IMG/VR virus record: IMGVR_UViG_3300020045_003191 | Span: 1 to 41,325 of that record | Origin: a virus | Taxonomy: Duplodnaviria > Caudoviricetes | Reading direction: 5' to 3' (one strand) | DNA length: 41,325 nt | Shown: piece after piece, positions 1 through 41,325 of the stretch | Position numbering within the stretch: position 1 is the first letter of the stretch | Layout of the letters: each line of letters opens with the position of its first letter | The notes under the pieces: generated by a model | Seen by the model: the letters and a program-made list of their open reading frames with translations, nothing else | Database searches by the model: none | Told to the model about the DNA's origin: nothing | Program-made: the position numbers and the translations under genes

Positions 1-4
1 CAGG

Positions 5-211
5 GTGCTGGATTTTGATAGTGGCTGGGGCAGAGTGAAAACTTACAAACTCTCTGATACCCCGTATTATGACGAGGATTGCATTCACGAGGTTTACATG
101 ATAAATAGGGAGAATAGATTAGTTCCGATTAGGTCATACCCTGTAAAGATAATACTCATATCCGACACAGGGTATTTATACATCCCCATGAGTAGATTGA
201 AGGCATTGTAA
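5..211 (+). CDS. C-terminal part of a hypothetical protein (5'-truncated); possible distant homologue of the 38105-38824 protein
   Basis: Frame open to the window edge; ends GYLYIPMSRLKAL vs DWYIPLECLEPA, and GRVKTYKLSD vs GKVVTFTKAD; same downstream context (hairpin, then GGGCTAAC). Confidence 0.55.
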   Translation: MLDFDSGWGRVKTYKLSDTPYYDEDCIHEVYMINRENRLVPIRSYPVKIILISDTGYLYIPMSRLKAL

Positions 212-212
212 A

Positions 213-238
213 CCCGCCCTCCTGTTGACGAGGGCGGG
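213..238. terminator. GC-rich hairpin between convergent units
   Basis: CCCGCCCTC-ctgttgac-GAGGGCGGG, 9-bp perfect stem just after the stop at 211. Confidence 0.6.
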
Positions 239-334
239 CTAACGGCTTGCGTTAGTTGCGGGAAACGGCGGGACGAGAAAAAGCCGTCAGTTTTGCCGAA
301 GCCCGTTTACCGTCAACTGCACGCTTTGTTGGGC
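237..334 (-). repeat. attC: attC site (98 bp)
   Basis: Minus strand GCCCAAC-AAAGC-GTGCAGTT-GAC...GC-AACTAAC-GCAAGCC-GTTAGCC gives R''/L''/L'/R' boxes with extrahelical bases. Confidence 0.88.
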
Positions 335-448
335 GGCTTCACAGATTGCAATGATACGATTGCATTCTTCAAACACTGTCTGTTTGTCACCTACGTTTGC
401 AAGCAACTTTATTGCAGATGCCCGCATAATTATTTCATCAATATCCAT
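287..448 (-). CDS. Cassette gene, 53-aa hypothetical protein (MDIDEIIMR...)
   Basis: ATG at 448 after AAGGAG; stop lies in the attC loop. Confidence 0.7.
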   Translation of the reverse strand: MDIDEIIMRASAIKLLANVGDKQTVFEECNRIIAICEAAQQSVQLTVNGLRQN

Positions 449-477
449 TTTGCTCCTTATGCCGTTGAGCGAGAGCC

Positions 478-602
478 GCCCAACGGATTGCGTTAGGCGC
501 GTGTGCGCCCGCAGAACGAACATATACGAGAACCATTGCCAAGCGTGATAGTGTAGTCTTTCGAGTGTGCCTTGCACACGTCGCCTGCACGCATTGTTAG
601 GT
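478..602 (-). repeat. attC: attC site (125 bp)
   Basis: Minus strand ACCTAAC-AATGC-GTGCAGGC-GAC-GTGTGC...GCACAC-GC-GCCTAAC-GCAATCC-GTTGGGC. Confidence 0.88.
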
Positions 603-738
603 GCGACCTGACCCACGCATAAAACGCTCGGATGTTTCCAGCTACTAAAGTTTTATGTATATCTGGTGTGTCATTCGACCACTTTAGTTTACGGATATAT
701 TCCTCTATCAATTCAAGATTTTCGTCAACTTGTGTCAT
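493..738 (-). CDS. Cassette gene, 81-aa hypothetical protein with C-terminal CxxH...CxxC
   Basis: ATG at 738 after GGAGG; C-terminal ~35 aa encoded by the attC; stop is the TAA of the L' box. Confidence 0.7.
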   Translation of the reverse strand: MTQVDENLELIEEYIRKLKWSNDTPDIHKTLVAGNIRAFYAWVRSHLTMRAGDVCKAHSKDYTITLGNGSRICSFCGRTRA

Positions 739-751
739 TGTGCCTCCTAGC

Positions 752-880
752 ATCTAACGGCTGGCGTTACCCGCAAGTGGGCGGAACGCTGATAACCTGG
801 TTTGACGGGGCCAATTCCCCGGTGGGTAAAATTTCCGAAGCGGGAGAATCCCCACTTGTCGGGTGGACGCGATGTTCGGC
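752..880 (-). repeat. attC: attC site (129 bp)
   Basis: Minus strand GCCGAAC-ATCGC-GTCCACCC-GAC-AAGTGGG...CCCACTT-GC-GGGTAAC-GCCAGCC-GTTAGAT. Confidence 0.88.
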
Positions 881-1095: not shown

Positions 1096-1128
1096 GCCGA
1101 ACTATGATTTATACATTAGACTTATACA
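1096..1128 (-). other. attI: attI-like recombination site
   Basis: Minus strand TGTATAA-gtctaa-TGTATAAA-TCATA-G^TTCGGC; lone R core with no hairpin partner, TAAA-N5-GTT geometry as in class 1 attI1, short direct repeats. Confidence 0.65.
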
Positions 1129-1156
1129 ATTATAATCAATTACTATCAGATGTCAA
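1129..1156 (-). promoter_or_regulatory. Sigma70-type promoter facing the cassette array (Pc equivalent)
   Basis: TTGACA (1156-1151), 16 nt, TATAAT (1134-1129). Confidence 0.8.
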
Positions 1157-14046: not shown

Positions 14047-14085
14047 ACCATCATTGAACAGTAAACAAACAAAAGGAGCCACGAA

Positions 14086-14319
14086 ATGAATAAAACATTC
14101 ACAGTAACGAAGATTGACAAGCACGAAAAAGAAGCACAGGTTCACATGGTTTCCGACAAAGGCGATACTCTGCGATTTTATGCGGCAGAGCAAGCATGGA
14201 CTTTTCGCTCATTCAGAACTGGAAGAATCAGCATGAAGCAACTAGAAAAGATTATTGACCAGTGGTACATGTTTGATAATCAATGTAATGTAAAGATCGG
14301 CGACATGGTGACAGTATGA
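14086..14319 (+). CDS. Hypothetical protein
   Basis: Strong RBS; stop overlaps the next start. Confidence 0.65.
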   Translation: MNKTFTVTKIDKHEKEAQVHMVSDKGDTLRFYAAEQAWTFRSFRTGRISMKQLEKIIDQWYMFDNQCNVKIGDMVTV

Positions 14320-14939: not shown

Positions 14940-15103
14940 AAAAAGTCTCAAAAAAAGTAAAGCCCCGCAAGGACATAAACCGGGATGGGCAGTCAAACCG
15001 CGCGGCGCAATTGAACGCCAAAGCACAGGCAAAAGGCTGGACGGGTATCAGCGAGTATTTGACGGCGGTAATCAACGATAAATCCGGGATACCGGAAAAG
15101 TAA
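14927..15103 (+). CDS. 58-aa basic ribbon-helix-helix-like protein (below the ORF-track cutoff)
   Basis: LNAKAQAKGWTGISEYLTAVI; overlaps the methyltransferase stop. Confidence 0.45.
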   Translation: MDKIKKVSKKVKPRKDINRDGQSNRAAQLNAKAQAKGWTGISEYLTAVINDKSGIPEK

Positions 15104-15124
15104 ACAAACAAAAGGAGCAACGAA

Positions 15125-15313
15125 ATGAAATTTGATAATCAAATTCGCGCCATCCAATACGCAATGAAAGAATTACAGCGTGAGCGTATCAAGGCAGTTG
15201 AGGCAAAGAATCAAGAATGGATTAATGATGTTGACCAATATCTTTTTGACCTTATCCGCGCCGTCGAAACTATTCAAGCCATGAAAGCCTTGTCAAAGGT
15301 AATCGCTAATTGA
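15125..15313 (+). CDS. Hypothetical helical protein
   Basis: Strong RBS. Confidence 0.6.
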   Translation: MKFDNQIRAIQYAMKELQRERIKAVEAKNQEWINDVDQYLFDLIRAVETIQAMKALSKVIAN

Positions 15314-17538: not shown

Positions 17539-18812
17539 CTTATGTTATCCAGCATACGACCGACCCAAAGATAGCGGACTATATTCCCTACGGCGGGAAC
17601 GAGGAGTTCATGTACTCGCATGAGCCGGAAGTTATCGCAGAGGGCGCGGCGGAAACGGGTAAGACATTGGCGGCTTGCTGGAAGTCGCATTTGCTTTTAA
17701 GCAAGTACGCTGGCGCGCAAGGTGCGCTACTACGCAAGACACAGACAAGCGTATATGGTTCGGTCATTCAGACATACGAGCGAGTAATAAAGGGTTCGCC
17801 CGTTACCAAGTACGGCGGCGAAAAGCCTGAGAAGTACACCTATCCCAACGGCTCAATCCTTTGGGTGGGTGGGATGGATAATAAAGACCGCGTGCTATCA
17901 TCGGAGCGTGATTTTATACAGACGTGCCAAACGGAAGAGTTCAGCCTGGATGATTGGGAATATCTGACAACCCGTACAACGGGACGTAGTGCGGTGGTAC
18001 GCTATCCGCAAATATTCGGTGACTGCAATCCCGGCGGCTCAAAACATTGGATACGACGAAGGAACAGCGATGGACATTTGAAGTTGATTCATACCGTCCA
18101 TAAAGACAACCCGACTTTGTGGGATGGTAGCAACTGGACAGTACAGGGCGAGCGCACATTGTCCCGCCTCTCTGCCTTATCAGGCATACGGCGCAAGCGG
18201 TTATTTGATGGGATATGGGCAACCGCTGAGGGCGCGGTATACGATATGTTTGATAGTGCCGTACACGTCAAGCAACGTGACCCGGCTGATATGAAGCAAT
18301 GGTACTTGGCGGTTGACGAAGGATACACAAACCCGGCTGTAATCCTGTTGATTGGAGAGGATGCGGACGGACGGCGGCATGTGTTTCAGGAATACTATGA
18401 GCGCGGCAAATTGCAAAGCGCGGTTGTAGCTGTAGCATTGGGCTTTTGCGAGTGGGTCGTAACTACTACAGGGTTATCAGTTTCACTTGCGGCGGTTGAC
18501 GCGGCGGCGGCTGGGTTGGTTGCTGAATTGGTTGACGCTGGCGTTCCTGCGATTGGCGCAAAGGGGCGGGTACTGGACGGCATACAGCGTATGCAGGACA
18601 GACTCAAGGTACAATCAGACGGACTACCTAGAGAATCAATTGACCCGTCATGTGTAAATCATATCAACGAGTATGAGTCATACGTGTGGAAGAAAACAAA
18701 CGCAACAGGGATTGCGAAGGACGAACCGCAAAAAGAGGACGATCACTCTATGGACGCGCGGCGATACTTGGAGGACGCATTAGGGGATGCGCCTACATGG
18801 TCATTTATATAG
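17535..18812 (+). CDS. terL: Terminase large subunit (PBSX-like)
   Basis: Walker A GAAETGKT, DCNPG, DEGYTNP, DDHSMDARRY. Confidence 0.95.
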   Translation: MTYVIQHTTDPKIADYIPYGGNEEFMYSHEPEVIAEGAAETGKTLAACWKSHLLLSKYAGAQGALLRKTQTSVYGSVIQTYERVIKGSPVTKYGGEKPEKYTYPNGSILWVGGMDNKDRVLSSERDFIQTCQTEEFSLDDWEYLTTRTTGRSAVVRYPQIFGDCNPGGSKHWIRRRNSDGHLKLIHTVHKDNPTLWDGSNWTVQGERTLSRLSALSGIRRKRLFDGIWATAEGAVYDMFDSAVHVKQRDPADMKQWYLAVDEGYTNPAVILLIGEDADGRRHVFQEYYERGKLQSAVVAVALGFCEWVVTTTGLSVSLAAVDAAAAGLVAELVDAGVPAIGAKGRVLDGIQRMQDRLKVQSDGLPRESIDPSCVNHINEYESYVWKKTNATGIAKDEPQKEDDHSMDARRYLEDALGDAPTWSFI

Positions 18813-18822
18813 TGAGGTAATC

Positions 18823-20961
18823 ATGCAGACAAGATTTGTAATGACAGACGGCGCAAAATCGGTAGGGATGCTATCCAGCAACGACCCGTCTATTTGGAAC
18901 TTCTTTTCAGGCGCGCCGCAATCATCGAAGGTTGTTTTATATTCCTACGTTGCCGCGGTGTATCGTGCCTATAATCTATTTGCTGATACCGTTGGTTCTT
19001 TGCCGTTTGCGCTGTATAGCCTGAATGGTAAAGACGAATACGACTCATCTGAGAACTGGGAAAACAAAGTTGGCTTTTTACCCAACCCCTCCGAACTATG
19101 GCGGCTGGATACCCTGTCATATATTGACAGTAACACGGTATACAATTTGCGGACATCGGATGTAATAGGATACAAAACGAAGGGCTTATACTTTGCCGTG
19201 CCTACCACGTTTTACCCGGTAACGAACGCAAGCGGGCAGTTGGACTATATCGAAAGGCGGGTAAATGGTTCGCCTGAAAGATACGAGACAGATGATAAAC
19301 GACTTGTCCGCATGTGGCGCAAAGATCATACTACAGAGGTACTCCCATCCCCTAACACCATCGCACAGGCAATCCAGCATTCAGCGGAGCAGGTGTTATA
19401 TACTGACTCATGGATAACGCACTACTACCAGCGCGGCGGTATCAAGCCCACGCTCATCGCCATGAAAGGACTGGTACAAAAGGAAAAGGGAGAGGAAGCC
19501 GAAAAGACATTTACTCAATGGTTGCGCGGACTGGGTAAATACTTCGGGAACATAGCCAAGATATACAACGCTGAGACAATGGACATCAAAGCGTTTGGCG
19601 ATGGCGTGGCAGAGTTGAAGGATAACGGGGTGTATAGGCAGGCGCTGGAGAATATAGCAATCGGCGCGGGCTTGCCATTGTCCCTGTTGTTATCCAATAG
19701 TGCGAACTATGCAACCGCCTCCACAGAGGAAAGGCAGTGGTACAAAAACACCATTACGCCCTTTAGTCGCTGGCTGGCGTATGGATATAATGAGCAGGTG
19801 TTTCACCCGATGGGGTTACACCTAAAATATAACATGGCGACAATGGACAGCCAACAGGAAGAGGACGCACAGAACGCGGCAACGGCAAAAGTTATCAATG
19901 ACCTGCTGTTACAATGTCCCACGTATGAACTATTCGAGGCGATTTCTAAAAGCTATGTTGAAGTCAGTGACGAATTATTAGTTGCCGCAAAGCAATACTA
20001 CACAGACAAGGCGAAGCAAGCCGCGCCCGTTGTTGTCAATACGCAACCCGATACCGCACAACCGAAGCCGGGAACAGAGACAGAGGAAATACCTGTTGGC
20101 ACTGAAAAGAATGACACAAAGGCTATTGGAGAAAATGATACAAGTGCCATGATTGCCTTGCGAATTCCCGACGTAATTAGGGCGGAGATAAAAGAAAAGT
20201 ACCCGTTTGTGGACAGTGAGACTCTAAGTGATTTACATATTACACTTGCGCATCTTGGCGATAATCGAACGATAGACAAATTGGACGTTGTAAGGGCTGT
20301 CTCTGAAATGGGTAAATATCAATTCCCCATAAAGGGAAAGTTACAGGGGCTGGCGCGCTTTGCTAATGGGCGGGACGTTGACCCGCTTGTAATGACATTC
20401 GATAGCCCACAGATGCCCGGTGTGTATAGTGTGTTGTGTAGCTTCTTGGATAGTTATCACATCCCTTATCATAAAGAGCACGGCTTCATTCCGCACATGA
20501 CGCTTGCCTACATACCAAAAGACGCCGAAATGCCCATTGATAGTATAGAGCCAATTGAGATTAACTTCTCTGATATTTATTATGTAGATAGTAATGTTTG
20601 GTATTCTGTTCAATTGGTTGGGTATGAAAACAAAAATACCAAATGGACACCCTCACTGGATGAGCTGGACGAACTGCGAATCTGGCGTGAGGTTGCTTTA
20701 CGCCGTCACAAAAAGGGCGAGAGCCTGGACTTTGAATATCAGCCACATCATGGCGGACTGCCTGAAAGTGTGACGGCTGATATAAAGGCGCGGCTGATAG
20801 ATGCGGTGGATAATGATACAATCAAGGCGGTGTTTGTTGTTAATCAATCGGTTGTAAAAGATAAGCCAAAACCAGACACAGACATAAAATCACTGGCAAA
20901 CGCTATTAATAAATATGCGGACGTGTTGAATAAAACAAAACAGTTAACGGCTACGACGTGA
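18823..20961 (+). CDS. Portal protein with a fused 2H-phosphoesterase domain
   Basis: Follows terL; YYQRGG, SANYATA portal motifs; HITL and HMTL motifs at 20236 and 20494. Confidence 0.85.
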   Translation: MQTRFVMTDGAKSVGMLSSNDPSIWNFFSGAPQSSKVVLYSYVAAVYRAYNLFADTVGSLPFALYSLNGKDEYDSSENWENKVGFLPNPSELWRLDTLSYIDSNTVYNLRTSDVIGYKTKGLYFAVPTTFYPVTNASGQLDYIERRVNGSPERYETDDKRLVRMWRKDHTTEVLPSPNTIAQAIQHSAEQVLYTDSWITHYYQRGGIKPTLIAMKGLVQKEKGEEAEKTFTQWLRGLGKYFGNIAKIYNAETMDIKAFGDGVAELKDNGVYRQALENIAIGAGLPLSLLLSNSANYATASTEERQWYKNTITPFSRWLAYGYNEQVFHPMGLHLKYNMATMDSQQEEDAQNAATAKVINDLLLQCPTYELFEAISKSYVEVSDELLVAAKQYYTDKAKQAAPVVVNTQPDTAQPKPGTETEEIPVGTEKNDTKAIGENDTSAMIALRIPDVIRAEIKEKYPFVDSETLSDLHITLAHLGDNRTIDKLDVVRAVSEMGKYQFPIKGKLQGLARFANGRDVDPLVMTFDSPQMPGVYSVLCSFLDSYHIPYHKEHGFIPHMTLAYIPKDAEMPIDSIEPIEINFSDIYYVDSNVWYSVQLVGYENKNTKWTPSLDELDELRIWREVALRRHKKGESLDFEYQPHHGGLPESVTADIKARLIDAVDNDTIKAVFVVNQSVVKDKPKPDTDIKSLANAINKYADVLNKTKQLTATT

Positions 20962-26313: not shown

Positions 26314-26750
26314 TGGCTGATGAAGTTGCCAATGCGGTAGCGCGTGTTCAGGACATCGTACAGGCTGTCACGTCTGTTACTTTCAAATCATTCCCTGATT
26401 ACCCTATCGAGAATGCAGACCCATTCCCCATGAGTGTAGCCTACATGAGCGGCGGCGCATTCATGGCGACCAACGCCACAACAACACTTCTATTCCCTAT
26501 TATTCGTGCGGAGTTCCATTTTAGCCGCGTGAATTTGAAGCGTGTTTATCAAGATATTTACAACGTCGCGATTGAATTTTCTCGCAGATTGGCAGGCGAC
26601 CCGACATTAAATGCAACTGTTCAAACCATTGTAGCAACAGGCGACCAGCCGCTAACCTTTACCACACGCCCTTTCAATTGGGGTACGGTGCAAAGCGAAG
26701 CATTGATTTTTGAAATACCTATCAAACTAATGAAAGCACCTTTGACATGA
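26313..26750 (+). CDS. Tail completion/terminator protein
   Basis: Size, position, DPTLNATV motif. Confidence 0.6.
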   Translation: MADEVANAVARVQDIVQAVTSVTFKSFPDYPIENADPFPMSVAYMSGGAFMATNATTTLLFPIIRAEFHFSRVNLKRVYQDIYNVAIEFSRRLAGDPTLNATVQTIVATGDQPLTFTTRPFNWGTVQSEALIFEIPIKLMKAPLT

Positions 26751-27886
26751 AAAATACCGTTGCCATTGTAGGTTCACATCCCCGCACGCGTGGCGAGTTC
26801 GATTTTCAGCGAACCGACTGCGATGTTTGGGTATTCAATGAAGCTATCTCGAATAACTCATTACCGCGTGCCGATGCTGTATTCCAGATGCACGAAGAAG
26901 CGATTTGGCGCAATCCCGCCAACCGCAACGACCCGAAACATTATGACTGGTTACGATCACAAATGGCGGTGGATGTGTATATGCAGGAAGTGTACCCAGA
27001 CGTGATTCGCTCTGTCCGCTTCCCGTTGGAAGAAATACAGGAGCGTTTTCATATCTCCTACTTTACTTCATCGGTTGCGTACGCGCTCGCGCTCGCGTGC
27101 GTACGCGGGTACAAGCGTGTTGAATTGTACGGCGTGGAAATGGAGACGAACACAGAATACCAATATCAGCGGGACGGTGTGACGTTCTGGATTGGTGTTG
27201 CGTTGGGATGCGGGATGGAAGTAGACGCACACGTAAGCATGTTTGAGCAACCATTATACGGCTATCAGGGTGAGGTTACTGTACCTTACGAAAGGTTTGA
27301 AAGCAGAATTGCAGAACTTCGCCCGAAGCTGGAGCAAATGTCAATCGAATACCGCGCCGGTATGGGTATTATCCAAAACGCTTTCAATCTGTTTATCAAT
27401 GACGGCTCGGCTGAAAACGAAGGTAATCTATATGCCATTGTACAAAAGCAGTGCGGACTCGGTGAGGCAATGGGCATGATTGACGGTGCGTTGCAGGAAA
27501 ATGAAAAGTACAAAGGAAAAGCGGACAAGATGCGTGAGGTTGCTGGCGACTATTTATTTAGCCGTCAAGAGTTTGAGAGTAGCGCAAAGAACCTGACAGA
27601 CCGCGCCGCTAAAGCACATGAAGAGTTTATATCTCACGGTACGGTACTCGGAGTTATCCACGACAATATCAAACGTTCCGCAAAGCAAAGCCCGAAGCGG
27701 TTGAAGCTGGCGCATGAGTACATAAAGCAACTGGATACCTATTTCAAGAAATCAAATCAGGCGTCCATTTATAGGGGTGCGAGTAACGAGAATTACTCAT
27801 ACATGGGCTGGCTGGACAAGCACATTCGCGCGGCAGGCGGTGCAAAGTCAGAGGCGGTCTTGTTGGAGGCGTTGCAAAATGCTTAA
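26747..27886 (+). CDS. Sugar/acyl transferase-like protein (sialyltransferase/MptE-like fold) with helical C-terminus
   Basis: VAIVGS...DVWVFN...TSSVAYALALA...GYKRVELYGVEM. Confidence 0.6.
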   Translation: MKNTVAIVGSHPRTRGEFDFQRTDCDVWVFNEAISNNSLPRADAVFQMHEEAIWRNPANRNDPKHYDWLRSQMAVDVYMQEVYPDVIRSVRFPLEEIQERFHISYFTSSVAYALALACVRGYKRVELYGVEMETNTEYQYQRDGVTFWIGVALGCGMEVDAHVSMFEQPLYGYQGEVTVPYERFESRIAELRPKLEQMSIEYRAGMGIIQNAFNLFINDGSAENEGNLYAIVQKQCGLGEAMGMIDGALQENEKYKGKADKMREVAGDYLFSRQEFESSAKNLTDRAAKAHEEFISHGTVLGVIHDNIKRSAKQSPKRLKLAHEYIKQLDTYFKKSNQASIYRGASNENYSYMGWLDKHIRAAGGAKSEAVLLEALQNA

Positions 27887-28382
27887 CTGGTTTGCTCCCT
27901 CAAAGCCCGCTGATTTGAAGCCTGTACCGTGGCTATCTCAAAATGCGACAAGTTATTTTGAGACTGTCCTGTCTCCTAATATGGAAGTATTGGAGTTTGG
28001 TTCGGGCGGGTCTACCTTGTGGTTATCAGAGCGCGTCAAGTATGTAACGTCCGTTGAGAATGATTACCAATGGATGAAAGAAGTCAAAGCACAGGCAGGC
28101 AATAACGTCCTTATGCTTATGGACTTAAGTTATATCTCGCGCAAGAGACAATTTGATATGGTGTTTATTGACGGCGAACCGGTTGGGTTAAGGGCTGATT
28201 GGATTCAAGCCGCGCCCTTTTTGGTGTGTAAGGACGGATGGGTAGTATTGGATAATGCCAATCGCCCCGAATACGCTTTGGAGCGTGAGGGCTTGTCCCA
28301 TCACGCAGACCTTATCCAGACCGTGAACGGTAACAGCGGTGGGACGCGTTATCTGGTAACTGAGTTTTGGAGGGTGCGATAA
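27879..28382 (+). CDS. Class I SAM-dependent methyltransferase
   Basis: VLEFGSGGST, VTSVEND, FDMVFIDG, VVLDN. Confidence 0.88.
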   Translation: MLNWFAPSKPADLKPVPWLSQNATSYFETVLSPNMEVLEFGSGGSTLWLSERVKYVTSVENDYQWMKEVKAQAGNNVLMLMDLSYISRKRQFDMVFIDGEPVGLRADWIQAAPFLVCKDGWVVLDNANRPEYALEREGLSHHADLIQTVNGNSGGTRYLVTEFWRVR

Positions 28383-29227
28383 TGCCACGCGTCGGACAGA
28401 ACCCCAACAAAGCCGCGCTGGGTGACGGTGCGTTGAATGTCCCTGTTCAATTGGCGGTAATCACACACCTACCCAACAGAACAACCGCCTATCATTCACA
28501 GAGGCTTGAGGTTGTTAAGGCGTGCCTTACCACCATGAGAATGTATGCAGGTGTTGACCATAACTTTATCGTATGGGATAACGGCTCATGCAGGGCATTG
28601 ACGGACTGGCTACAGTACGAGTTTATTCCTGATATTTTGGTACTCTCTCCAAACATCGGAAAAAACTCCGCCCGATATGCGCTTGTCAATATGTGCAATC
28701 CAAAATCAATCTTTTGTTATTCAGATGATGACATGCTGTTTTTTCCGAATTGGTTACAGCCGCAAATAGATTTACTCAAACACTTCCCCAACGTCGCAAG
28801 CGTGAGCGGGTATCCCGTCCGAACTGCCTTTCGGTGGGGCGTTACGAATACCTTGAAATGGTCAAACGCAAACGGCAAGGTAACATCCGGCAAACTCATG
28901 CCCCAAGAGTGGGAGGATGATTTTGCCGTATCGCTTGGACGTGATGTTAATTGGCACGCGGGCTATACAAAGGATGATATTGATTATCAGGTAGAGTACA
29001 AGGGCGTGAGTGCTTATTGTACGTCTCATCACTGCCAGTTTATCGGACGCGCTGGATTATTGTCAAAGATTATCAAACCCGACGGTATGGCAATGGCAGG
29101 CGAACGTGAGTTTGATGTAGCGATGGATGAAGCAGGCTTACGCCTGTCTACAACACAAAGATTGTGCCGTCATATGGGTAATGTGATGGATGAAAAAATA
29201 AAAAGTGAATTAATGCAATTTGCATAA
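28382..29227 (+). CDS. Glycosyltransferase family 2 (GT-A)
   Basis: IVWDNGS, NIGK..AR, YSDDD (DxD). Confidence 0.85.
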   Translation: MPRVGQNPNKAALGDGALNVPVQLAVITHLPNRTTAYHSQRLEVVKACLTTMRMYAGVDHNFIVWDNGSCRALTDWLQYEFIPDILVLSPNIGKNSARYALVNMCNPKSIFCYSDDDMLFFPNWLQPQIDLLKHFPNVASVSGYPVRTAFRWGVTNTLKWSNANGKVTSGKLMPQEWEDDFAVSLGRDVNWHAGYTKDDIDYQVEYKGVSAYCTSHHCQFIGRAGLLSKIIKPDGMAMAGEREFDVAMDEAGLRLSTTQRLCRHMGNVMDEKIKSELMQFA

Positions 29228-30783: not shown

Positions 30784-32865
30784 ATGCCCGCTCGCGTACA
30801 GATCGTAGTCGAAACAAAAGACGTGTCATCTGGAATTTTGCGCGGCATTACCGGGCAGTTCGGGCAGTTGGGTTCTGTTGTAGAGGAGATGACCGCCAAG
30901 AACGTTAATTGGGGGAATGTCGCACAACAGGCAACCACGCTTGTTATCGAAGGCTTGAAACAATCCTACGCCGCCGCACAGGAATACAGTCAGAGCGTGC
31001 GTGATTTGAGTCTGATAACACAGACCGGGGCGGAGCAAACGTCCCGCTTTTTGCAGGTGTTGGATGATTACCAATTAACCGCCGATGACGCGACCGCCGC
31101 AAGCAAGGCACTCAAAGAAAATGGATTAGTCCCAACGATTGACACGCTCGCGGATTTGGCAGACCAATATCAATCCATAAAAGACCCCGCTGAAAAATTG
31201 GTATTTATTCAGGAGAATTTGGGCAGGGGCGGAGCAAAGTGGATTAACGTACTCAATCAACAAAGTGACGCACTTAGAAATCAAGCGGCAAATGTAGACC
31301 AGAATCTTATATTGACCGATGAAATGATAAGAAAAATGGAGCTTGCCCGCTTGGCTGGCGATGCTTGGGCGGATACGTGGCAGGGTATTCAAGTACAGGT
31401 GGGGGCGGCAATGGGGAGCATTGTAGCCGATATGGAAGATACAAAAACGGCGGCGGCAGAAGAGAGGCGTGAATTAGAGGATACAGCTAAAAGTTTAGGA
31501 ATGACTGTTGATGGATTTTTAGATTATTCTCTCGCGCTGGATGCGTCCGGGCGGGCGCAAAATAATCTAATTGCACAACAGGAAAAAACAGATTGGGCGG
31601 CGCAAGAAAAAGGAATAACAGATACAGCGGACGCCGCTAAAGACCTAGCCGTAAGCATTCAAGAGATTGATTATAAAGCCCTTATACAGGGAATCCAAAG
31701 CACACAAAGCGAGATGGATAACTACGCCAAAAAGAATCAAGAGATTGCAGAGAGTGAGCAGGTATCCATTGCTAAAAAAGCGGAACTGCTCGCGTCGATT
31801 GAAAAGCTAAAATCACAGGGCTATCAGGAAGCCGGGCAGACCATTCAGGACGTACGCGAAAATATAAAAGCGGTTGATGCTGAATTGGAAAATAACAAAA
31901 AGACACTGGCAGAGAATGAGGCGGCTCATAAAAAATGGGCGGCGCAAACCATCTTTGCCTTTGCACAAGCCCGCGCCGCCGCCGATGGAAGTATCACAGA
32001 GGGAGAGGGTAAGGTACTGATTGAGATGGGGCAACAGTTGGGATTGTTTGACGAACAAACTGCGAAGGCAATGGAAGGCGTCAACAAAGCGTTTGAAAAT
32101 GTGGACACAGAGAATGCGGAGGAGTCTATAACGGCGGTTAAGTCTGCTTTGGAGGCGTTGACCGGGCAACCGTGGACGGTGTTTGTACAGGGTGTCTATT
32201 CGGTGACGGGAAGCACAAGCGTGGGAACGAACTGTTTTATAGAGAATACAAAAATCCTTATGCGGGATTATGTGTTCAAAAATATTCAGGATGTAGAACC
32301 GGGTGATTATGTCATATCGTATGAAGTGGAAACGGGTATGTTGAAAGAGGCAAAGGTAGCCGAAAAGATTACCCACGACAAAAGCGAAGTCAAGGACGGC
32401 TATTTACTTATTAATTACCACCTGGGCGTTACGCGTGAACATCCATTAAAGACGCCCGACGGGTGGAAGTATGCCGGTGATTTGAACGCGGGCGATACAT
32501 TGATTACACCGGAAGGGACTATAAAAGTATTCTCCATTCTTGAAATAAAGGATAATGTCACGGTATACAATTTGCATATTGATGACGAAGATCACAACTT
32601 CTTTGCAAACGGGATACTGGTACATAATGTAATTCCAAAAGCGGCACAAGGCGGGCAGGTGTACGCAGGCAAGCCCACGCTTGTAGGAGAGGCGGGGCAG
32701 GAAGTATTTGTACCACCTTCCAACGGGCGTATATTGAGCAACGCTGAAAGCCTTCATGCCATGACCATCGCAAACGGCGGAGGCGGAGGCAGTAACTATT
32801 TTTATGGTAATGTCACTCTCCAAATTGGAGATGATGACGCAAGCGGATTAATGAGCGTGAGATAA
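30784..32865 (+). CDS. Tape measure protein containing a Hint domain
   Basis: Ala/Gln-rich helical body; C-terminal A.GG.V...LVGEAGQEVFVP motif. Confidence 0.85.
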   Translation: MPARVQIVVETKDVSSGILRGITGQFGQLGSVVEEMTAKNVNWGNVAQQATTLVIEGLKQSYAAAQEYSQSVRDLSLITQTGAEQTSRFLQVLDDYQLTADDATAASKALKENGLVPTIDTLADLADQYQSIKDPAEKLVFIQENLGRGGAKWINVLNQQSDALRNQAANVDQNLILTDEMIRKMELARLAGDAWADTWQGIQVQVGAAMGSIVADMEDTKTAAAEERRELEDTAKSLGMTVDGFLDYSLALDASGRAQNNLIAQQEKTDWAAQEKGITDTADAAKDLAVSIQEIDYKALIQGIQSTQSEMDNYAKKNQEIAESEQVSIAKKAELLASIEKLKSQGYQEAGQTIQDVRENIKAVDAELENNKKTLAENEAAHKKWAAQTIFAFAQARAAADGSITEGEGKVLIEMGQQLGLFDEQTAKAMEGVNKAFENVDTENAEESITAVKSALEALTGQPWTVFVQGVYSVTGSTSVGTNCFIENTKILMRDYVFKNIQDVEPGDYVISYEVETGMLKEAKVAEKITHDKSEVKDGYLLINYHLGVTREHPLKTPDGWKYAGDLNAGDTLITPEGTIKVFSILEIKDNVTVYNLHIDDEDHNFFANGILVHNVIPKAAQGGQVYAGKPTLVGEAGQEVFVPPSNGRILSNAESLHAMTIANGGGGGSNYFYGNVTLQIGDDDASGLMSVR
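32233..32628 (+). other. 132-aa Hint (intein-like) domain with no endonuclease; +1 residue is Val
   Basis: CFIENTKI...IQDVEPGD...VTREHPL...VYNL...HNFFANGILVHN/V. Confidence 0.9.
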
Positions 32866-35952: not shown

Positions 35953-37079
35953 GCAGTTTTGTAAGGCAACCATTAGAGCAAAAATTAAATAGACAGAATA
36001 TGATTTCCCGTATCAAGCGGCTGGAATCCAAGACGGGCGCGCGCGCGAGTGCGAGCGTGAACGACTTGGGCGAGATAGCGGACAAGATCAGCGCGGCTAA
36101 ATTCTACGCGGTGGATGTGGATAAGAACGTAGTCCGAATGATTATGTCGGGTGAATCTCTTATAGGCTTGATTGGCGTTGATGCTCATTTGGCGGGTATG
36201 GCGGATGATGGGACGGTTCAATTTTATGTAGACGCCGCGACGGGAAAAATATATTGGGGAAGCGGTGCGGGTGTGTTGGATTCAGATGGTATGTCTATAA
36301 ATATAGATAATTATGATGACACTACAAATCCAAACGCAATACGATTTTTATCGAGTGGGACAGAAGCGTCAAGAATAGTAGCATGGCAAAACACCGGGAC
36401 GCTTAATAATTATGCCGCTACAACCGTTAATCATATAACTGGTCTGTCGAGTAACTATCGTATAGATGTGTACGGCTCAAGTACAGATGGTGCGGCAATT
36501 AACATGAATGCTCAGGGAGTATATCAACATCTCTTGAAGATCGACGCCTCCCTGGCTGGTATAAAAATATCAAGAATTACTCTCAACGGAGGTCCCATTG
36601 CAAAAATTGGCGGCATTATATTCGACCACTACGCCAACGTCGGGAACGTTGGGACGGGTGAGGATGATTTATATTCTGACACTCTAGACGCTGATACCTT
36701 TGTGGCGGACGGTGACAAGGTAACCGCCTCCTACATGGTCACGATGGTAGCGCACGCAACAGCCACGCGTCGAATTAGGATATACTTGGGCGGTACATCC
36801 ATATATGACACAGCCGCTATCACCATTGCGGGCGGGCTTGGGTATTGTGGTATTAATGTCGAGATGATTCGGGAAAGTTCTACAGTCGTTCGATGTTCGG
36901 TCACAGCGAGCGGATATAGAATGTCCGCAACTGTACCCGCGCTTTATACAAGAGTTACGGGTTTGACGCTGACTAACACAAACATACTAAAGATTACAGG
37001 CGAGGCGGCAGGGGTGGGCGCGGCAACAGATGACCTTATCGCACGCACTGGAACGGTGTACTGGTATCCGGCGGCATGA
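35949..37079 (+). CDS. Tail fibre / receptor-binding protein
   Basis: N-terminal coil RIKRLES, then Gly/Thr-rich beta body; last tail gene. Confidence 0.6.
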   Translation: MSSFVRQPLEQKLNRQNMISRIKRLESKTGARASASVNDLGEIADKISAAKFYAVDVDKNVVRMIMSGESLIGLIGVDAHLAGMADDGTVQFYVDAATGKIYWGSGAGVLDSDGMSINIDNYDDTTNPNAIRFLSSGTEASRIVAWQNTGTLNNYAATTVNHITGLSSNYRIDVYGSSTDGAAINMNAQGVYQHLLKIDASLAGIKISRITLNGGPIAKIGGIIFDHYANVGNVGTGEDDLYSDTLDADTFVADGDKVTASYMVTMVAHATATRRIRIYLGGTSIYDTAAITIAGGLGYCGINVEMIRESSTVVRCSVTASGYRMSATVPALYTRVTGLTLTNTNILKITGEAAGVGAATDDLIARTGTVYWYPAA

Positions 37080-37089
37080 TAGGAGTGGT

Positions 37090-38112
37090 ATGAACTTCAC
37101 AGACGGAAACGTAATCGGCGCGGATGTATCTCTGTATCAGGATGATAACGGGACACTCCAACGCATAGACTTTACCAAGATGGTTGGACAGGGTGCGTCC
37201 TTCGTCATTGTGCGCGCCGGGCAGAACGCTTGGGTTGACCCTGACTTTGCCTACAATTGGGCGAACGCAAAAGCGGCGGGATTACCGCGCGGTTCGTATT
37301 GGTTTTATGACTCACGCTATCCCCCGCTCGCACAGGCGGAGCTATTTGCGGGACTGTTCGCAACCGATAAGCCTGAATTGGAATTGTGGCTTGACTTGGA
37401 AGAGGCATACGGCGGGAGTTATGCGGGGTGGAAGAACTGGAAAATATTCTTGACCCGATTGCATGAGTTATTGCCATCCGTAAAGATTGGAATTTATACC
37501 GGGTACTATTACTTTACTGGCAAGATACCCGCGTCAGAGTATCCATTCTTTTCTGCATTTGGTTTATGGATCGCCTGGTACACGTCAAATCCCGCTAATG
37601 TGTCAATCCCGGTCCCGTGGACAAACTGCCTGTATTGGCAATGGGGTACGCCCTCTTGGGGCTTGGCTTGGGGGTGCGAGAGTATTGAAATTGATATGAA
37701 TAAATTCAACGGCACCGCGGCGGAGTTTTCCGCACGTTACGGAATCGGAGGAGGTACAGACCCCATGCCCACAGACAAATATTATCTCGTTACGGTTGAC
37801 GCCCTGAATGTACGGGACGCCTTGACTGGTGGCAATCCGATATTCACAATACAACTCAATGACGTTGTACACTCCGTTGAAAATGGCACGGATGGAAACA
37901 TCGTCCGCCACAAGATAGATAAGTTGTATAAAGCTGGCGTATTGACACCCTTCGACGTCACATCCCCAACGGGTCAATATTGGGCGGCTGAAAAGAACAC
38001 GTCAACCGGTAATGTGTTTATGGTGGAAACGAGCGACCCGAATCCGCCGCAAAAGGTATTGACACACACAATCAAAGTATTCGATGACGGGAGCATTGTT
38101 ATAGATGGCTAG
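37090..38112 (+). CDS. Endolysin, GH25 muramidase with SH3-like C-terminal region
   Basis: GADVSLYQ, WLDLEE, IYT, LWIAWY, WQW, IDMN; LNVR SH3b motif; AGGAG RBS. Confidence 0.92.
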   Translation: MNFTDGNVIGADVSLYQDDNGTLQRIDFTKMVGQGASFVIVRAGQNAWVDPDFAYNWANAKAAGLPRGSYWFYDSRYPPLAQAELFAGLFATDKPELELWLDLEEAYGGSYAGWKNWKIFLTRLHELLPSVKIGIYTGYYYFTGKIPASEYPFFSAFGLWIAWYTSNPANVSIPVPWTNCLYWQWGTPSWGLAWGCESIEIDMNKFNGTAAEFSARYGIGGGTDPMPTDKYYLVTVDALNVRDALTGGNPIFTIQLNDVVHSVENGTDGNIVRHKIDKLYKAGVLTPFDVTSPTGQYWAAEKNTSTGNVFMVETSDPNPPQKVLTHTIKVFDDGSIVIDG

Positions 38113-38824
38113 TCTACTGCGTACAGTAAAAGTGTTCAACGATGGGAGTATTGAGGTAGAAGCGGCGCAAGTACCTCCCCCCTCTTACCGCGTCCGCAAG
38201 TGGGGCGATCCCATCATGGCGAAGGAATATAACTGCGACGTGAACGTGATAAAAACAACGAACTTTCAGCGCGTCTGTATGTATGTCCCTCTCACGAGTA
38301 CATGGTCGGTTGTGGAAAATCATGTTGTACTGGGGCGCGCTGAGATGAATGCGCTGATAAACATACAAACAAAGTGGGGGAAACACACCTCTGACACGTT
38401 CGATCAAATGATGAATTGGCTGGTGTTCGATGGTGAGGCGACCCGTCCATATTGGGGCGGCAAATGGAAAACGGCTACGCTGTTCAAAACGGGTACGATG
38501 TTATGGGGCGGGCAATTGGTACAAATCGGCGAGCGTAAAACATTCCTGACGGCTACGCCGGGGAATACCAAAAAGAGACAGATTGAGATGGGCAAGGTTG
38601 TCACGTTTACAAAGGCGGATTTAGCGAAGCTGATAGCCGGGACCATCACCCCGCAATCACATCCCCACCTGATACCGCAATGTAGTGCGGCGGGTGGTAA
38701 CAACGTATTCAATCCAACGCCGCGCGGCAATACAATGTTCTCGCCTATCTGGGGCGGTGAGTGGGCAAAGGTGAATATGGCAAGGGATTGGTATATCCCG
38801 CTGGAATGTCTGGAGCCTGCATAA
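38105..38824 (+). CDS. Lysis-module accessory protein sharing a terminal peptide with the endolysin
   Basis: N-terminal TVKVFNDGSIEV matches endolysin C-terminal TIKVFDDGSIVI. Confidence 0.65.
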   Translation: MASLLRTVKVFNDGSIEVEAAQVPPPSYRVRKWGDPIMAKEYNCDVNVIKTTNFQRVCMYVPLTSTWSVVENHVVLGRAEMNALINIQTKWGKHTSDTFDQMMNWLVFDGEATRPYWGGKWKTATLFKTGTMLWGGQLVQIGERKTFLTATPGNTKKRQIEMGKVVTFTKADLAKLIAGTITPQSHPHLIPQCSAAGGNNVFNPTPRGNTMFSPIWGGEWAKVNMARDWYIPLECLEPA

Positions 38825-38831
38825 TATAAAA

Positions 38832-38861
38832 CTCCCACTGTCCATTTTGCAACAGCGGGAG
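38832..38861. terminator. Hairpin between the late operon and the convergent cassette array
   Basis: AAAA-CTCCCACTGT...ACAGCGGGAG; the U-tract reads on the minus strand. Confidence 0.55.
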
Positions 38862-38903
38862 GAGACGGCGTTACCTAATCCGTATACCGTTTATTATTTG
38901 CCG

Positions 38904-39032
38904 GGCTAACGGCTGGCGTTAGTGGCAGTGGGGCGGGCTGGGAAAATGCCAGAGAGCCGCACCAACTACCAGACGCGAACCAACTAAATCAGCGGGGAGA
39001 ATCCCCACTGTCCACTGCACGCGGTGTTAGCC
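38904..39032 (-). repeat. attC: attC site (129 bp)
   Basis: Minus strand GGCTAAC-ACCGC-GTGCAGTG-GAC-AGTGGGG...CCCCACT-GC-CACTAAC-GCCAGCC-GTTAGCC. Confidence 0.88.
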
Positions 39033-39291
39033 CGCGTTTTCGTTCGGCAATCTTTTTCAGCAATTCACCAGCAATCAATTCATCATCATTTCCAAATAGA
39101 TTGTCTGGCGCGGTCTTGATAAGTGCAATCGCCTGAATTGCTTTTGTTTCTGCGGCTTCTAAAACTTGCTTGCGCCGTTCTGGATTTTGGAAAAACTCCA
39201 CTGCTGACGCAATGCCGCCGCCTGATGGTATTGCTTCACGAGCGATAAATTGAGTAATCAATTTTGTGACATTTGTTCCGTATTTGCTCAT
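38989..39291 (-). CDS. Cassette gene, 100-aa hypothetical protein (MSKYGTN...)
   Basis: AAGGAGAG RBS; stop inside the attC. Confidence 0.75.
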   Translation of the reverse strand: MSKYGTNVTKLITQFIAREAIPSGGGIASAVEFFQNPERRKQVLEAAETKAIQAIALIKTAPDNLFGNDDELIAGELLKKIAERKRGLTPRAVDSGDSPR

Positions 39292-39314
39292 GGCTCTCCT
39301 TTTGCAAAGAAGCG

Positions 39315-39425
39315 GGCTAACGGTTTGCGTTACCCGCAAGGGCGAGAACGCAAGACCATGAATTTATTAGAATGGAATATCGTTTTCAGACTCGTTGCCC
39401 TTGTCGGGTGCACGCTTTGTTAGGC
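39315..39425 (-). repeat. attC: attC site (111 bp)
   Basis: Minus strand GCCTAAC-AAAGC-GTGCACCC-GAC-AAGGGC...GCCCTT-GC-GGGTAAC-GCAAACC-GTTAGCC. Confidence 0.88.
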
Positions 39426-39615
39426 GGTGTACTATTGACCAAAACCACGACATGACATCTGAATAAACCTGATAGGCTTTCACCTTACGGTATGACCAAC
39501 ACCTATCATATAAGAGATACCCATATTCGCAACAGTTGACGGCAACGGCTTGCTGACCTACGCCAATATCAACATATTCAAACGGATGTAAATCACAAAA
39601 CGGACATTTTTCCAT
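39367..39615 (-). CDS. Cassette gene, 82-aa Cys-rich protein (MEKCPFC...DIPF)
   Basis: GAAAGG RBS; stop in the attC loop; also in frame with the upstream cassette gene. Confidence 0.65.
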   Translation of the reverse strand: MEKCPFCDLHPFEYVDIGVGQQAVAVNCCEYGYLLYDRCWSYRKVKAYQVYSDVMSWFWSIVHRLTKRAPDKGNESENDIPF

Positions 39616-40050
39616 GATGAACCTTTCACGCGGCGAAGCCGCCCAACGGTTTGCGTTACCCGCGTGGGGCACGCGAACCTGTCCAATTATTGCCCAGCCT
39701 GCCCCACGTCGGGTGCACGCTGTGTTAGACCCCGTAAGAGCCTCACGATAAAGAGACCTTACTTCATCTTCCGAAGCGACAATATCTGTGGATGGATACA
39801 ATCCATTGTTTGAGCTTTCCCATCCAGTACCTTCGAGGTTTTCATAATCAATGTGTTCCAATCGCGCCATGAGCGAACCATCACAATCTTTGTCGTAGCC
39901 AGTTATGCGGAATGCAAGCAAAACGATTGTTCCAACTGGCTCAGGCTCAATGGGATCGCGGCGAATAGTTGAAAAATTATCTGGAAAGCCTGGCATTGAT
40001 TCCATTCTGAAATTTTCTTCTTCGGCTGTTATTTCTCTGACTGTTCTCAT
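39367..40050 (-). CDS. Cassette gene (MRTVREIT...) reading through its attC into the next cassette gene; 227-aa fusion
   Basis: AAGGAG RBS before 40050; no in-frame stop across attC 39641-39730. Confidence 0.65.
   Translation of the reverse strand: MRTVREITAEEENFRMESMPGFPDNFSTIRRDPIEPEPVGTIVLLAFRITGYDKDCDGSLMARLEHIDYENLEGTGWESSNNGLYPSTDIVASEDEVRSLYREALTGSNTACTRRGAGWAIIGQVRVPHAGNANRWAASPRERFIMEKCPFCDLHPFEYVDIGVGQQAVAVNCCEYGYLLYDRCWSYRKVKAYQVYSDVMSWFWSIVHRLTKRAPDKGNESENDIPF
39641..39730 (-). repeat. attC: attC site (90 bp)
   Basis: Minus strand GTCTAAC-ACAGC-GTGCACCC-GAC-GTGGGGC...GCCCCAC-GC-GGGTAAC-GCAAACC-GTTGGGC. Confidence 0.88.
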
Positions 40051-40069
40051 AAGGCTCCTTTGCTTAGGG

Positions 40070-40203
40070 GTCTAACGGCCAAGCGTTACCGGATTGTGGC
40101 TGCGGATGTAGTATCCGCCCCTTTGACGGTGACGCCATCGGCTGACATATTAGCCGGTGAAACGGGACCGCCCGCCACAATTCCGGTGGACGCAATGTTG
40201 GCT
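40070..40203 (-). repeat. attC: attC site (134 bp)
   Basis: Minus strand AGCCAAC-ATTGC-GTCCACCG-GA-ATTGTGGC...GCCACAAT-CCGGTAAC-GCTTGGCC-GTTAGAC. Confidence 0.85.
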
Positions 40204-40475
40204 TGCGCTTCTGCGGGCGTGATGTGATGCTGACGATAATAAGCGTGCCATTCGCGGGAGGGCCAGAAATATCCGCCGTCGTAAATGTAAATTGGATTGG
40301 CGGGGTTGAACGGATAGGCGCTGTAAGTTGCACGGTCTGGATACCCTGGGGCCGAAACGCCACAACGCTGAAATCCGCCGATGTATTTATTATCCAGGCC
40401 GCACAACGAAATCCAAACTTCGGATTTTTCGTAATCGTCTGGCGAGGTGCATTTCTTTGCGGGGAAGTGTTCCAT
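40086..40475 (-). CDS. Cassette gene, 129-aa hypothetical protein (MEHFPAKK...)
   Basis: GGAG RBS; stop is the TAA in the L' box. Confidence 0.7.
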   Translation of the reverse strand: MEHFPAKKCTSPDDYEKSEVWISLCGLDNKYIGGFQRCGVSAPGYPDRATYSAYPFNPANPIYIYDGGYFWPSREWHAYYRQHHITPAEAQANIASTGIVAGGPVSPANMSADGVTVKGADTTSAATIR

Positions 40476-41325
40476 ATTTCTCCAATAGCAAGCCAACGGA
40501 TTGCGTTACCGGCGAAAAGCCGAGAACCAACCAAGCAAACGGGATAAGATATTTCGAGCGGACAAAGCCGCTTTGACGGCTGCTGGCTTTTCGTCCGGTG
40601 GACGCGGTGTTAGGTGGCGTGCAGAACGGCCCGCACTCAACCCCGCGTAATTTCTGAGAGAGTTCTTTGCCGAGGAAGTTTAGCCCTGGCAGTTCATCGA
40701 GGAAATATTTCCGGCAGATGTGATAATTCAACTCTCTTTCTATCGTGGCGATTTTCCAAAAGTTCTCTGGAAAATATGTAAAAACTTTTAGCCAGTAAGC
40801 AATTGATTTAGATTTCACGCACCCTAAACAATTGTTATTTGGAAAGCCAAGATAATAAAGTTCTGGCAATCGAATACCAGCAGATTCGAGAATGGTTAGA
40901 CAATCGCGCTTTGTTATGCCAAGTTCGATGAGCGGCCAAAGTAAATACAAATCTGGATTGTCTCTTTCAAAATCTTTTGCCCGGCGAGTTTCCCCGGCAT
41001 GATAACCAAAGACATGGTAATCAGATGGCTCTTGCCAGAGTTCACGCACGCGCCGCTTTAGTTCATGCGTGCATGGTGCAAAACCCTTACCGACAATAAA
41101 TCTCTTTTTCCTGAAAACATCATAAATATCTTTGTACTCGCTGGAATAGAGTTGCAGAATTGGTACGTTTGTCCATTCTGATATTTGATTTTGAAAGCGG
41201 AGATTATCGGGCGATTCGGTTGAAAGAGTGCTGGCACAATTAACCGCTATCACGTTTTGATAATTCGCGGCGGCATATTTCAAGGCGATCGCTGACGCAG
41301 CGCCATTTGAAAACCAAACCACCAC
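40390..41325 (-). CDS. PAPS-reductase-family (PP-loop) protein, 5'-truncated cassette gene reading through its attC
   Basis: VVWFSNGAASA PP-loop, APCTHELK, GFPNNNCLGCVK, VECGPFC. Confidence 0.8.
   Translation of the reverse strand: MVVWFSNGAASAIALKYAAANYQNVIAVNCASTLSTESPDNLRFQNQISEWTNVPILQLYSSEYKDIYDVFRKKRFIVGKGFAPCTHELKRRVRELWQEPSDYHVFGYHAGETRRAKDFERDNPDLYLLWPLIELGITKRDCLTILESAGIRLPELYYLGFPNNNCLGCVKSKSIAYWLKVFTYFPENFWKIATIERELNYHICRKYFLDELPGLNFLGKELSQKLRGVECGPFCTPPNTASTGRKASSRQSGFVRSKYLIPFAWLVLGFSPVTQSVGLLLEKYGTLPRKEMHLARRLRKIRSLDFVVRPG
40491..40615 (-). repeat. attC: attC site (125 bp)
   Basis: Minus strand ACCTAAC-ACCGC-GTCCACCG-GAC-GAAAAGCC...GGCTTTTC-GC-CGGTAAC-GCAATCC-GTTGGCT. Confidence 0.88.

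Follow-up and report, generated by a model that had tools for sequence, protein, structure and literature searches.

The window analysed here is the entire virus record IMGVR_UViG_3300020045_003191 (G000; 41,325 bp, classed as linear and 99% complete by CheckV), in which the phage genes for terminase, portal, capsid, Dit, a GH25 endolysin, RecT, SSB and a replication initiator were recognized. At its right end, between 38904 and 41325, lies array 2, the row of integron-type gene cassettes that is the subject of this work: five attC sites, all on the minus strand, one behind each of five genes. A shorter row, array 1, lies at the left end. Counted from the contig end inward, the genes of array 2, likewise on the minus strand, are those of cassette 5 (40614..41325; a PAPS-reductase family member of PptA/SspD type, about 19 N-terminal codons of which lie beyond the contig end), cassette 4 (40086..40475; 129 residues, no family match), cassette 3 (39727..40050; a 108-residue core, member of a large conserved family), cassette 2 (39367..39615; 82 residues with a CxxC...CC motif, phrog_24508) and cassette 1 (38989..39291; 100 residues, four-helix model). 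The corresponding attC sites span 40615-40491 (125 bp, 68 bits in the covariance model described below), 40203-40070 (134 bp, with one additional base in the central spacer, 45 bits), 39730-39641 (90 bp, 83 bits), 39425-39315 (111 bp, 84 bits) and 39032-38904 (129 bp, a host-like length, 78 bits). Cassettes 4, 3, 2 and 1 measure 421, 429, 326 and 411 bp and each possesses a ribosome-binding site (RBS) and an ATG. The original prediction had all five genes led by an RBS, which is true of the four with a visible Shine-Dalgarno sequence and ATG but not of the fifth, the start of which lies beyond the contig end.

Towards the phage genes the array closes with a 21-bp end piece (38889..38909), reaching from the last crossover point to a second, opposite-facing GTT triplet; both of its borders are joints where a related strain differs. 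The site at 38889 was considered as a host-type attI or a remnant attC and rejected, the motif being absent and the covariance model finding nothing there. Then follows a hairpin resembling an intrinsic terminator (38832..38861, minus strand; 11 pairs, T tail on the minus strand), one of 6 such matches in a scan where 3.8 were expected. The array had been described as convergent with the lysis genes; the gene that faces it (38105..38824, plus strand, five homologues) has no family match, and the GH25 lysin, recognized by its family match, is one gene further (37030..38112, plus strand).

All five attC sites of array 2 retain the R boxes, the L boxes and both extrahelical bases. They show the inverted box pairs R''/R' and L''/L', conserved AAC/GTT, short spacers and a single strand that can fold, and their polarity follows from two bases that stay extrahelical, on the bottom strand a G and a T. 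On the top strand, every site has an extra C in L'' and an extra A two bases later, which places the array 2 genes in the canonical direction. A covariance model trained on 35 attC sites of other genomes only (20 host, 15 viral) found exactly eight sites in the window, five in array 2 and three in array 1, all on the minus strand and scoring 45-84 bits; the next-best match in the window reached 9 bits, and the plus strand gave nothing above 9 bits. The predicted set of five minus-strand sites of 90-134 bp, of the same family as array 1, is thereby recovered in full. Canonical pairing was observed in 92.5% of the cells of the 35-site alignment and in at most 37% when the alignment was slid, and double-sided changes numbered 137 versus 49 in shuffles. 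A strict grammar scan recovered six of the eight window sites and none in 10 shuffled genomes. The bottom-strand folds are mostly only modestly more stable than those of shuffled sequences (z −1.9 to −3.8).

A cassette is integrated as a circle, and its start is then the complement of its own far end. For cassettes 4, 3 and 1 the first 10 bases are the exact reverse complement of the cassette's own far end, and cassette 2 agrees at 8 of 9 positions. Four of the five units, cassette 5 being unscorable with its start beyond the contig end, thus consist of a promoterless open reading frame (ORF) plus an attC and start with the complement of their own R''. For comparison across the family a sample of 103 viral cassettes (six from the window) and one of 111 host cassettes were used, the host genome G010 standing outside both. 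In the viral sample the start matched the cassette's R'' at six of six bases in 63 cases and the in-array R' in 11. Further signs of movement come from run X1, in which three short contigs cover 38644-39278 at a depth of 2-3 with 0-1 differences. One of them diverges just after the last R' of cassette 1 into the start of another cassette with RBS and ATG; in a second, a frame ending in an R''-like box is joined at GTT 38889-91 and is followed by the terminator. Over 11 bases the free ends of these two contigs are complementary to each other, so they may delimit a single additional gene. In close homologues of cassettes 1, 3 and 5 the attC-type tail at the end is a different one, and three viral contigs have a cassette in common at 88-91% amino-acid identity. 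IntI has been reported to insert cassettes at non-att genome sites, the basis of attG secondary sites and of lone attC sites without integron-integrase (SALINs; Loot et al., bioRxiv 10.1101/2022.09.11.507474). Such an insertion would be a possible origin of the joint at 38889-91. The present case differs from attG/SALINs in that array 1 has a true host-type attI and that both arrays are ordered rows, not single insertions.

All five array 2 reading frames enter their own attC. The frame of cassette 4 crosses the whole site and stops at the TAA of L', those of cassettes 2 and 1 stop inside the attC loop, and those of cassettes 3 and 5 continue beyond the site, the latter remaining open to 40390. 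Across the family, frames entered the attC in 137 of 177 viral cases versus 9 of 141 host cases, 119 of the 141 host frames ending before the site. In the dereplicated viral set 128 of 146 entering frames pass R'', and the TAA of L' is in frame in 94 of 116 cases, with one third expected. CxxC motifs within viral attC loops numbered 34 in frame versus 6 in the other forward frames and 1.7 in reverse; a high reverse-frame count obtained at one stage came from the conserved boxes and was gone once the loops alone were scored. Hairpins of attC are reported to hinder ribosomes and to reduce downstream translation (PMC8876359, citing Jacquier 2009). Translation through the hairpin would relieve this block, and translation into the attC would add swappable C-terminal tails. 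As a separate observation, cassettes 3 and 2 together form a single 227-codon frame across the intervening attC (39367-40050).

The product of cassette 5 falls into PHROG 424, in agreement with the PAPS-reductase-like enzyme predicted for the array. It aligned with PptA (PDB 21fy) over 209 residues (E 6.5e-45), gave a weak match to the PADLOC model of SspD (E 1e-8) and contains a PP-loop-type motif and a cysteine cluster, the N-terminal loop and the cysteines being conserved. Relatives are present in 72 phage records, and a metagenome scan yielded relatives at 40-47% only; single-protein scans of viral contigs with gene 38105, cassette 5 and its homologue P0003 gave no match. Our literature search found no paper on the function of PptA. 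In distinction from PptA/SspD-like enzymes, array 2 has no partner genes and the cassette 5 gene sits as a cassette. A role in the sulfur modification of DNA against restriction is conjecture, with a chance of about one half. Relatives of cassette 2 occur in Pseudomonas phages. Its acidic tail ends in ENDIPF (39367-39393), encoded inside its own attC, and five host SSB proteins end in EDDIPF; other attC sites of the 110-bp type give different tails. That the DIPF tail might mimic the host SSB tail is a doubtful proposition. The predicted "zinc-finger-like proteins" reduce to cassette 2, with its CxxC...CC motif and its place in phrog_24508, the others not being clearly so; the predicted DIPF tail is real, but it is carried by this same protein and not by a separate one.

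Cassette 1 belongs to a family of 197 proteins and cassette 3 to one of at least 350. Both were modelled with confidence (predicted local distance difference test, pLDDT, 93 and 95), cassette 3 as a small beta-barrel, and neither model clearly resembled a known fold (best Z 6.2 and 4.0; nothing under E 0.001 in Foldseek). For cassette 4 no match was found in the family libraries or the fetched loci, the only homologue searches made for it. The six window cassette proteins compared by BLAST showed no mutual match and the other two were compared by eye, so that array 2 indeed shares no gene with array 1. The cargo matched no resistance gene and no NCBIfam family and has phage-type homologues, as expected for the phage accessory genes that had been proposed. 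An anti-defence function of this cargo may be indicated by cassette 5 (PptA, SspD), the sole pointer in that direction; its enzyme, together with the DNA methyltransferases of the wider pool, would shield phage DNA from host restriction.

Viral and host cassettes of this attC family differ in several respects. The viral ones have a median length of 533 bp with attC sites of 119 ± 16 bp, the host ones 761 bp and 130 ± 2 bp, some long "cassettes" possibly being several with a missed site. By BLAST, 24 of the 103 viral queries had viral homologues and none had a host homologue. Of 96 viral cassette proteins 16 matched DNA methyltransferase families, of 108 host ones none; these counts leave out the six window cassettes, one protein below 40 residues, one with an X and two duplicates. 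The DNA of array 2 gave, against 401 genomes of the host order, a match for only one attC, and a profile of cassette 3 gave none in the same genomes, in a search run without a positive control. Homologues of the cassettes thus occur in phages and not among the sampled host cassettes, and the phage-adapted cassette pool put forward in the original prediction is supported as a shorter, methyltransferase-rich population with viral relatives of its own. Distant relatives of cassette 3 (eight of eight viral loci) and of cassette 5 (17 of 17 metagenome loci) have no attC of the family beside the gene, the check with the covariance model covering 12 of these loci. We therefore regard cassettes 3 and 5 as ordinary phage-type genes that were packaged as cassettes in this lineage. 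In G061 (L349:14244-17293), the nearest relative by capsid (79%), two divergent arrays follow the late operon and one of them is convergent on it; the arrays of G061 and G044 occupy the same convergent position as array 2.

In viral contigs the pattern of the window sites was matched by 117 stretches; among genomes it was matched by at least 181, most of them titled Anaerolineales, Anaerolineae or Chloroflexota. Eight of 11 such host genomes contain an IntI above the TIGR02249 cut-off, with intI divergent from the array and a conserved attI motif. Compared with the best SSB from each of five host genomes, that of the phage shows 61-65% identity, and the attC of cassette 1 shows 76% identity to a site in the host-order genome G191. 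Array 1 (minus strand) comprises three attC sites of the same family within 237..880 (880-752, 602-478 and 334-237), preceded by an attI-like site (1100..1114, crossover between 1102 and 1101) and a promoter-like site (1129..1156; TTGACA-16-TATAAT, 12/12 to sigma-70). Over 16 bases the attI-like site agrees without a difference with the attI next to an intI of Anaerolineales (L292), and six other viral loci have the host-type attI motif ahead of attC. At its far end array 1 meets a hairpin and a convergent, 5'-open ORF (2..211, plus strand, no family match) without detectable homology to gene 38105.

Array 2 is open at position 41325, the last base of the record, and its promoter, attI and any intI are out of view, as had been stated. 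No terminal repeat is present in the 41,325-bp record and its ends do not join. Rightward extension was attempted from reads, and no contig of the three runs X1, X2 and X3 crosses 41325; X2 and X3 gave little match beyond attC motifs, save a 226-base piece of the cassette 5 gene (~93%, X3). Three homologues of cassette 5 (79-86% identity) have about 19 additional N-terminal residues. A single array split by linearization of a circle was rejected: there is no terminal repeat, and when the ends are joined the frame meets a stop 14 codons upstream and finds no ATG, while the residues supplied do not resemble the homologues' N-terminus. Given this mismatch, and the hairpin and convergent ORF at the end of array 1, the more likely layout is one of two arrays separated by a gap. 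Both on the minus strand, they are probably adjacent on a circular map across a gap that hides the promoter and attI of array 2. The far end of cassette 5 allows the sequence of the missing start to be predicted, and the extra residues VAE that precede Met in homologue P0003 would agree with this prediction.

Concerning the integrase, no tyrosine recombinase was found among the 70 window ORFs scanned or in a six-frame search with PF00589. As assembled, the sequence corresponds to an attC cluster without an integron-integrase (CALIN), with at least two clustered attC sites and no intI nearby. Among 50 viral records with the attC family, eight carry an IntI above the curated cut-off; 13 family records have terminal repeats, 11 of them without IntI and two with it, and G022 and G029, which have terminal repeats and no IntI, show the host-type attI motif ahead of attC. 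In the host chromosomal integron of G010 (L442:3100-4800) the first three cassettes are of phage type, including a C5 methyltransferase, and two of these three attI-proximal cassettes are 82-94% identical in nucleotide sequence to viral cassettes, which suggests that the host IntI acts on phage cassettes. Integration of a prophage at the G010 attI was rejected as an explanation, as only three phage-type cassettes precede the host cassettes.

A further IntI scan of viral contigs gave 80 loci. In a quick tree the host IntI form one clade and the attI-ended phage IntI two others; the tree has 67 rows, 21 of 88 loci having been dropped by a motif filter, and no direction of donation is claimed from it. 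Both phage clades (L359-L371, L385-L398) are co-oriented with their cassettes and have attI at or overlapping the intI stop, and one of them lies near the Anaerolineales IntI. In L370:2950-3075 the intI stop codon falls within an attC R'' box, which gives the integrase gene the look of a cassette in its own right. Many other IntI-like genes (L372-L384, L393, L397-L438) have no attI-like site at the stop and no family attC nearby, other attC types and orientations being outside the scope of that survey.

Taking these data together, we attribute the locus, with a probability of roughly 0.7, to a working phage-resident array of five integron-type cassettes with attC sites of the Anaerolineales family, moved by an integrase in trans. 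From the sequence data, supply of this integrase in trans, most likely by the host, is favoured. Circular cassettes would be inserted one by one at an attI in the missing stretch, and the array would be transcribed from a phage early promoter, with a stop at the terminator before the late operon. Several points weigh against this attribution. The 5' end of array 2 is out of view, and the phage's own intI or host DNA could lie there. The host, likely one of the Anaerolineales, is one that we infer from the similarity of attC, attI and SSB (61-65%), and capsid relatives were found in only 2 of 401 genomes of that order. Viral sites share ancestry, and the binomial p of 6e-26 overstates their independence and is indicative only. 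Within array 2 only cassette 4 (one of five) stops at L' and none of the five loops contains a CxxC tail, which makes the coding signal weaker here than in array 1; the read-through of cassette 2 and the fusion of cassettes 3 and 2 could be accidents. The X1 evidence consists of three short low-depth contigs that are physically unlinked. Finally, four of the five genes received no functional assignment and no PADLOC or NCBIfam match.

Were the missing stretch upstream of cassette 5 to contain a co-oriented intI with attI at its 3' end, the phage would have a complete integron of its own. Such an arrangement exists in the family: besides the eight of 50 records with IntI mentioned above, all eight viral intI examined are co-oriented with the cassettes and have an attI-like GTT site at the stop codon, of 24 viral intI loci selected for that layout 20 are followed downstream, on the same strand, by attC sites of the family, and the viral IntI profile matches the solved IntI4 (2a3v) at 1e-111. 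For the present phage it is nevertheless unlikely, since a record 99% complete by CheckV can hardly accommodate another 1 kb, the attI motif of array 1 is of the host type and not of the types found with phage intI, and no IntI was found in the nearest capsid relative G061, a 41% fragment. Loss of mobility altogether, with cassettes acquired once, inherited as phage genes and exchanged by RecT-type recombination, would account for the absence of an integrase from a record that encodes RecT and SSB. Read-through would then be a by-product of compaction, as the two frames that overrun their site and the one that fuses two cassettes might suggest, and the modest bottom-strand folds (z −1.9 to −3.8) would fit as well. 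We consider such a frozen relic improbable, as all five sites keep their boxes and extrahelical bases, the complementarity of start and end is intact, X1 differs precisely at crossover triplets, and the family-wide in-frame L' stop (94/116) and CxxC loops (34 in frame versus 6) speak against it.

Slightly less probable still is that array 2 is host DNA at the edge of a prophage lying in or beside a host chromosomal integron. The attC family and the attI motif are those of the host, the attC of cassette 1 is host-like in length and in its 76% identity to a host site, G010 holds phage-type cassettes within a host array, and captures of this kind have been published for Vibrio phages (PMC9892861). 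Host arrays, however, have attC sites of 130 ± 2 bp, a median cassette of 761 bp and frames that end before the site in 119 of 141 cases; array 2 has attC sites of 90-134 bp, cassettes of 326-429 bp and five read-throughs out of five. It lacks the features of the sedentary chromosomal arrays of Anaerolineales, namely uniform attC sites of ~130 bp after the stop codon, host-type cargo and a chromosomal context. Homologues of its genes occur in phages, the genes did not turn up in the 401 host-order genomes searched, and the arrays of the related phage records G061 and G044 are placed convergently as here. An ordinary host chromosomal integron, the alternative named in the original prediction itself, is accordingly disfavoured by cassette type, by absence from these genomes and by placement in related phages.

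The preferred attribution, a phage-resident array served by an integrase in trans, may be compared with known systems. Qi et al. (2023, PMC9892861) surveyed 10,705 phage genomes and reported 17 CALINs together with 3 complete integrons, the complete ones being host-type or class 1; IntI1 recombined five of six phage attC sites, and DNA methyltransferase cargo was proposed as counter-defence. Array 2 resembles those phage CALINs in its co-oriented attC cassettes without intI and in the methyltransferase cargo of its pool. The main text of PMC9892861 does not contain a Chloroflexota family, an attI of host type preceded by a phage promoter, co-oriented phage IntI clades, a separate pool or coding attC sites. 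Recombination of attC sites engineered into coding sequence has been reported (Nivina et al. 2020, PMC7439510), and there too the same DNA serves as attC and protein code; those sites are synthetic, whereas the phage overlap is natural and accompanied by a family-wide frame bias and CxxC enrichment. With the sedentary integrons of Anaerolineales, array 2 and its relatives share the attC boxes, polarity, attI motif and canonical gene direction. They differ in that the host attC sites are uniform (~130 bp) and mostly outside the gene, the host cassettes are longer, intI is divergent, none of the 108 sampled host cassettes encodes a DNA methyltransferase and, G010 aside, no proteins are common to the host and viral samples. 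A widespread Chloroflexota phage system with its own pool, a copied host attI, co-oriented IntI and coding attC was not found in the open-access literature.

The usual view assigns integrons to bacteria, of late as repositories of genes against phages, and takes arrays carried by phages for rare captures. With one attC family in 117 viral stretches and a methyltransferase-rich pool of its own, integron machinery here appears to serve the phage side. A wider picture, in which phages of Anaerolineales run an integron economy of their own, is in our estimate evenly balanced: phage genes would become cassettes with coding attC sites, the integrase would shuffle counter-defence genes, and exchange of attC would swap C-terminal modules such as zinc ribbons and the DIPF mimic of the SSB tail. 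Some lineages would carry a co-oriented IntI, others would use that of the host through a copied attI, and cassettes would leak into the host integron. The cassettes provide a ready list of counter-defence candidates. Natural coding attC sites, with sister genes that have or lack attC, offer a handle on the origin of cassettes from ordinary genes, and the coding sites also on whether integrons shuffle protein domains as well as genes.

Elsewhere in the window several minor features were observed. The portal protein is fused to a domain resembling 2'-5' RNA ligases and 2H phosphoesterases (18787-20961), a tape-measure-like protein has a Hint/intein-like domain near its C-terminus (30784-32865), and methyltransferase-like and GT2 glycosyltransferase genes lie within the head-tail module (26747-29227). 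A small PolX-like protein matches the DNA polymerase beta thumb (6140-6667). Short repeats based on TGCCAACGCT are clustered within overlapping frames at 1836-2350 and are not attC sites by the model. Finally, a 35-bp direct repeat (94%; 14056-14090 and 15095-15129) ends in the RBS and ATG of two small genes.

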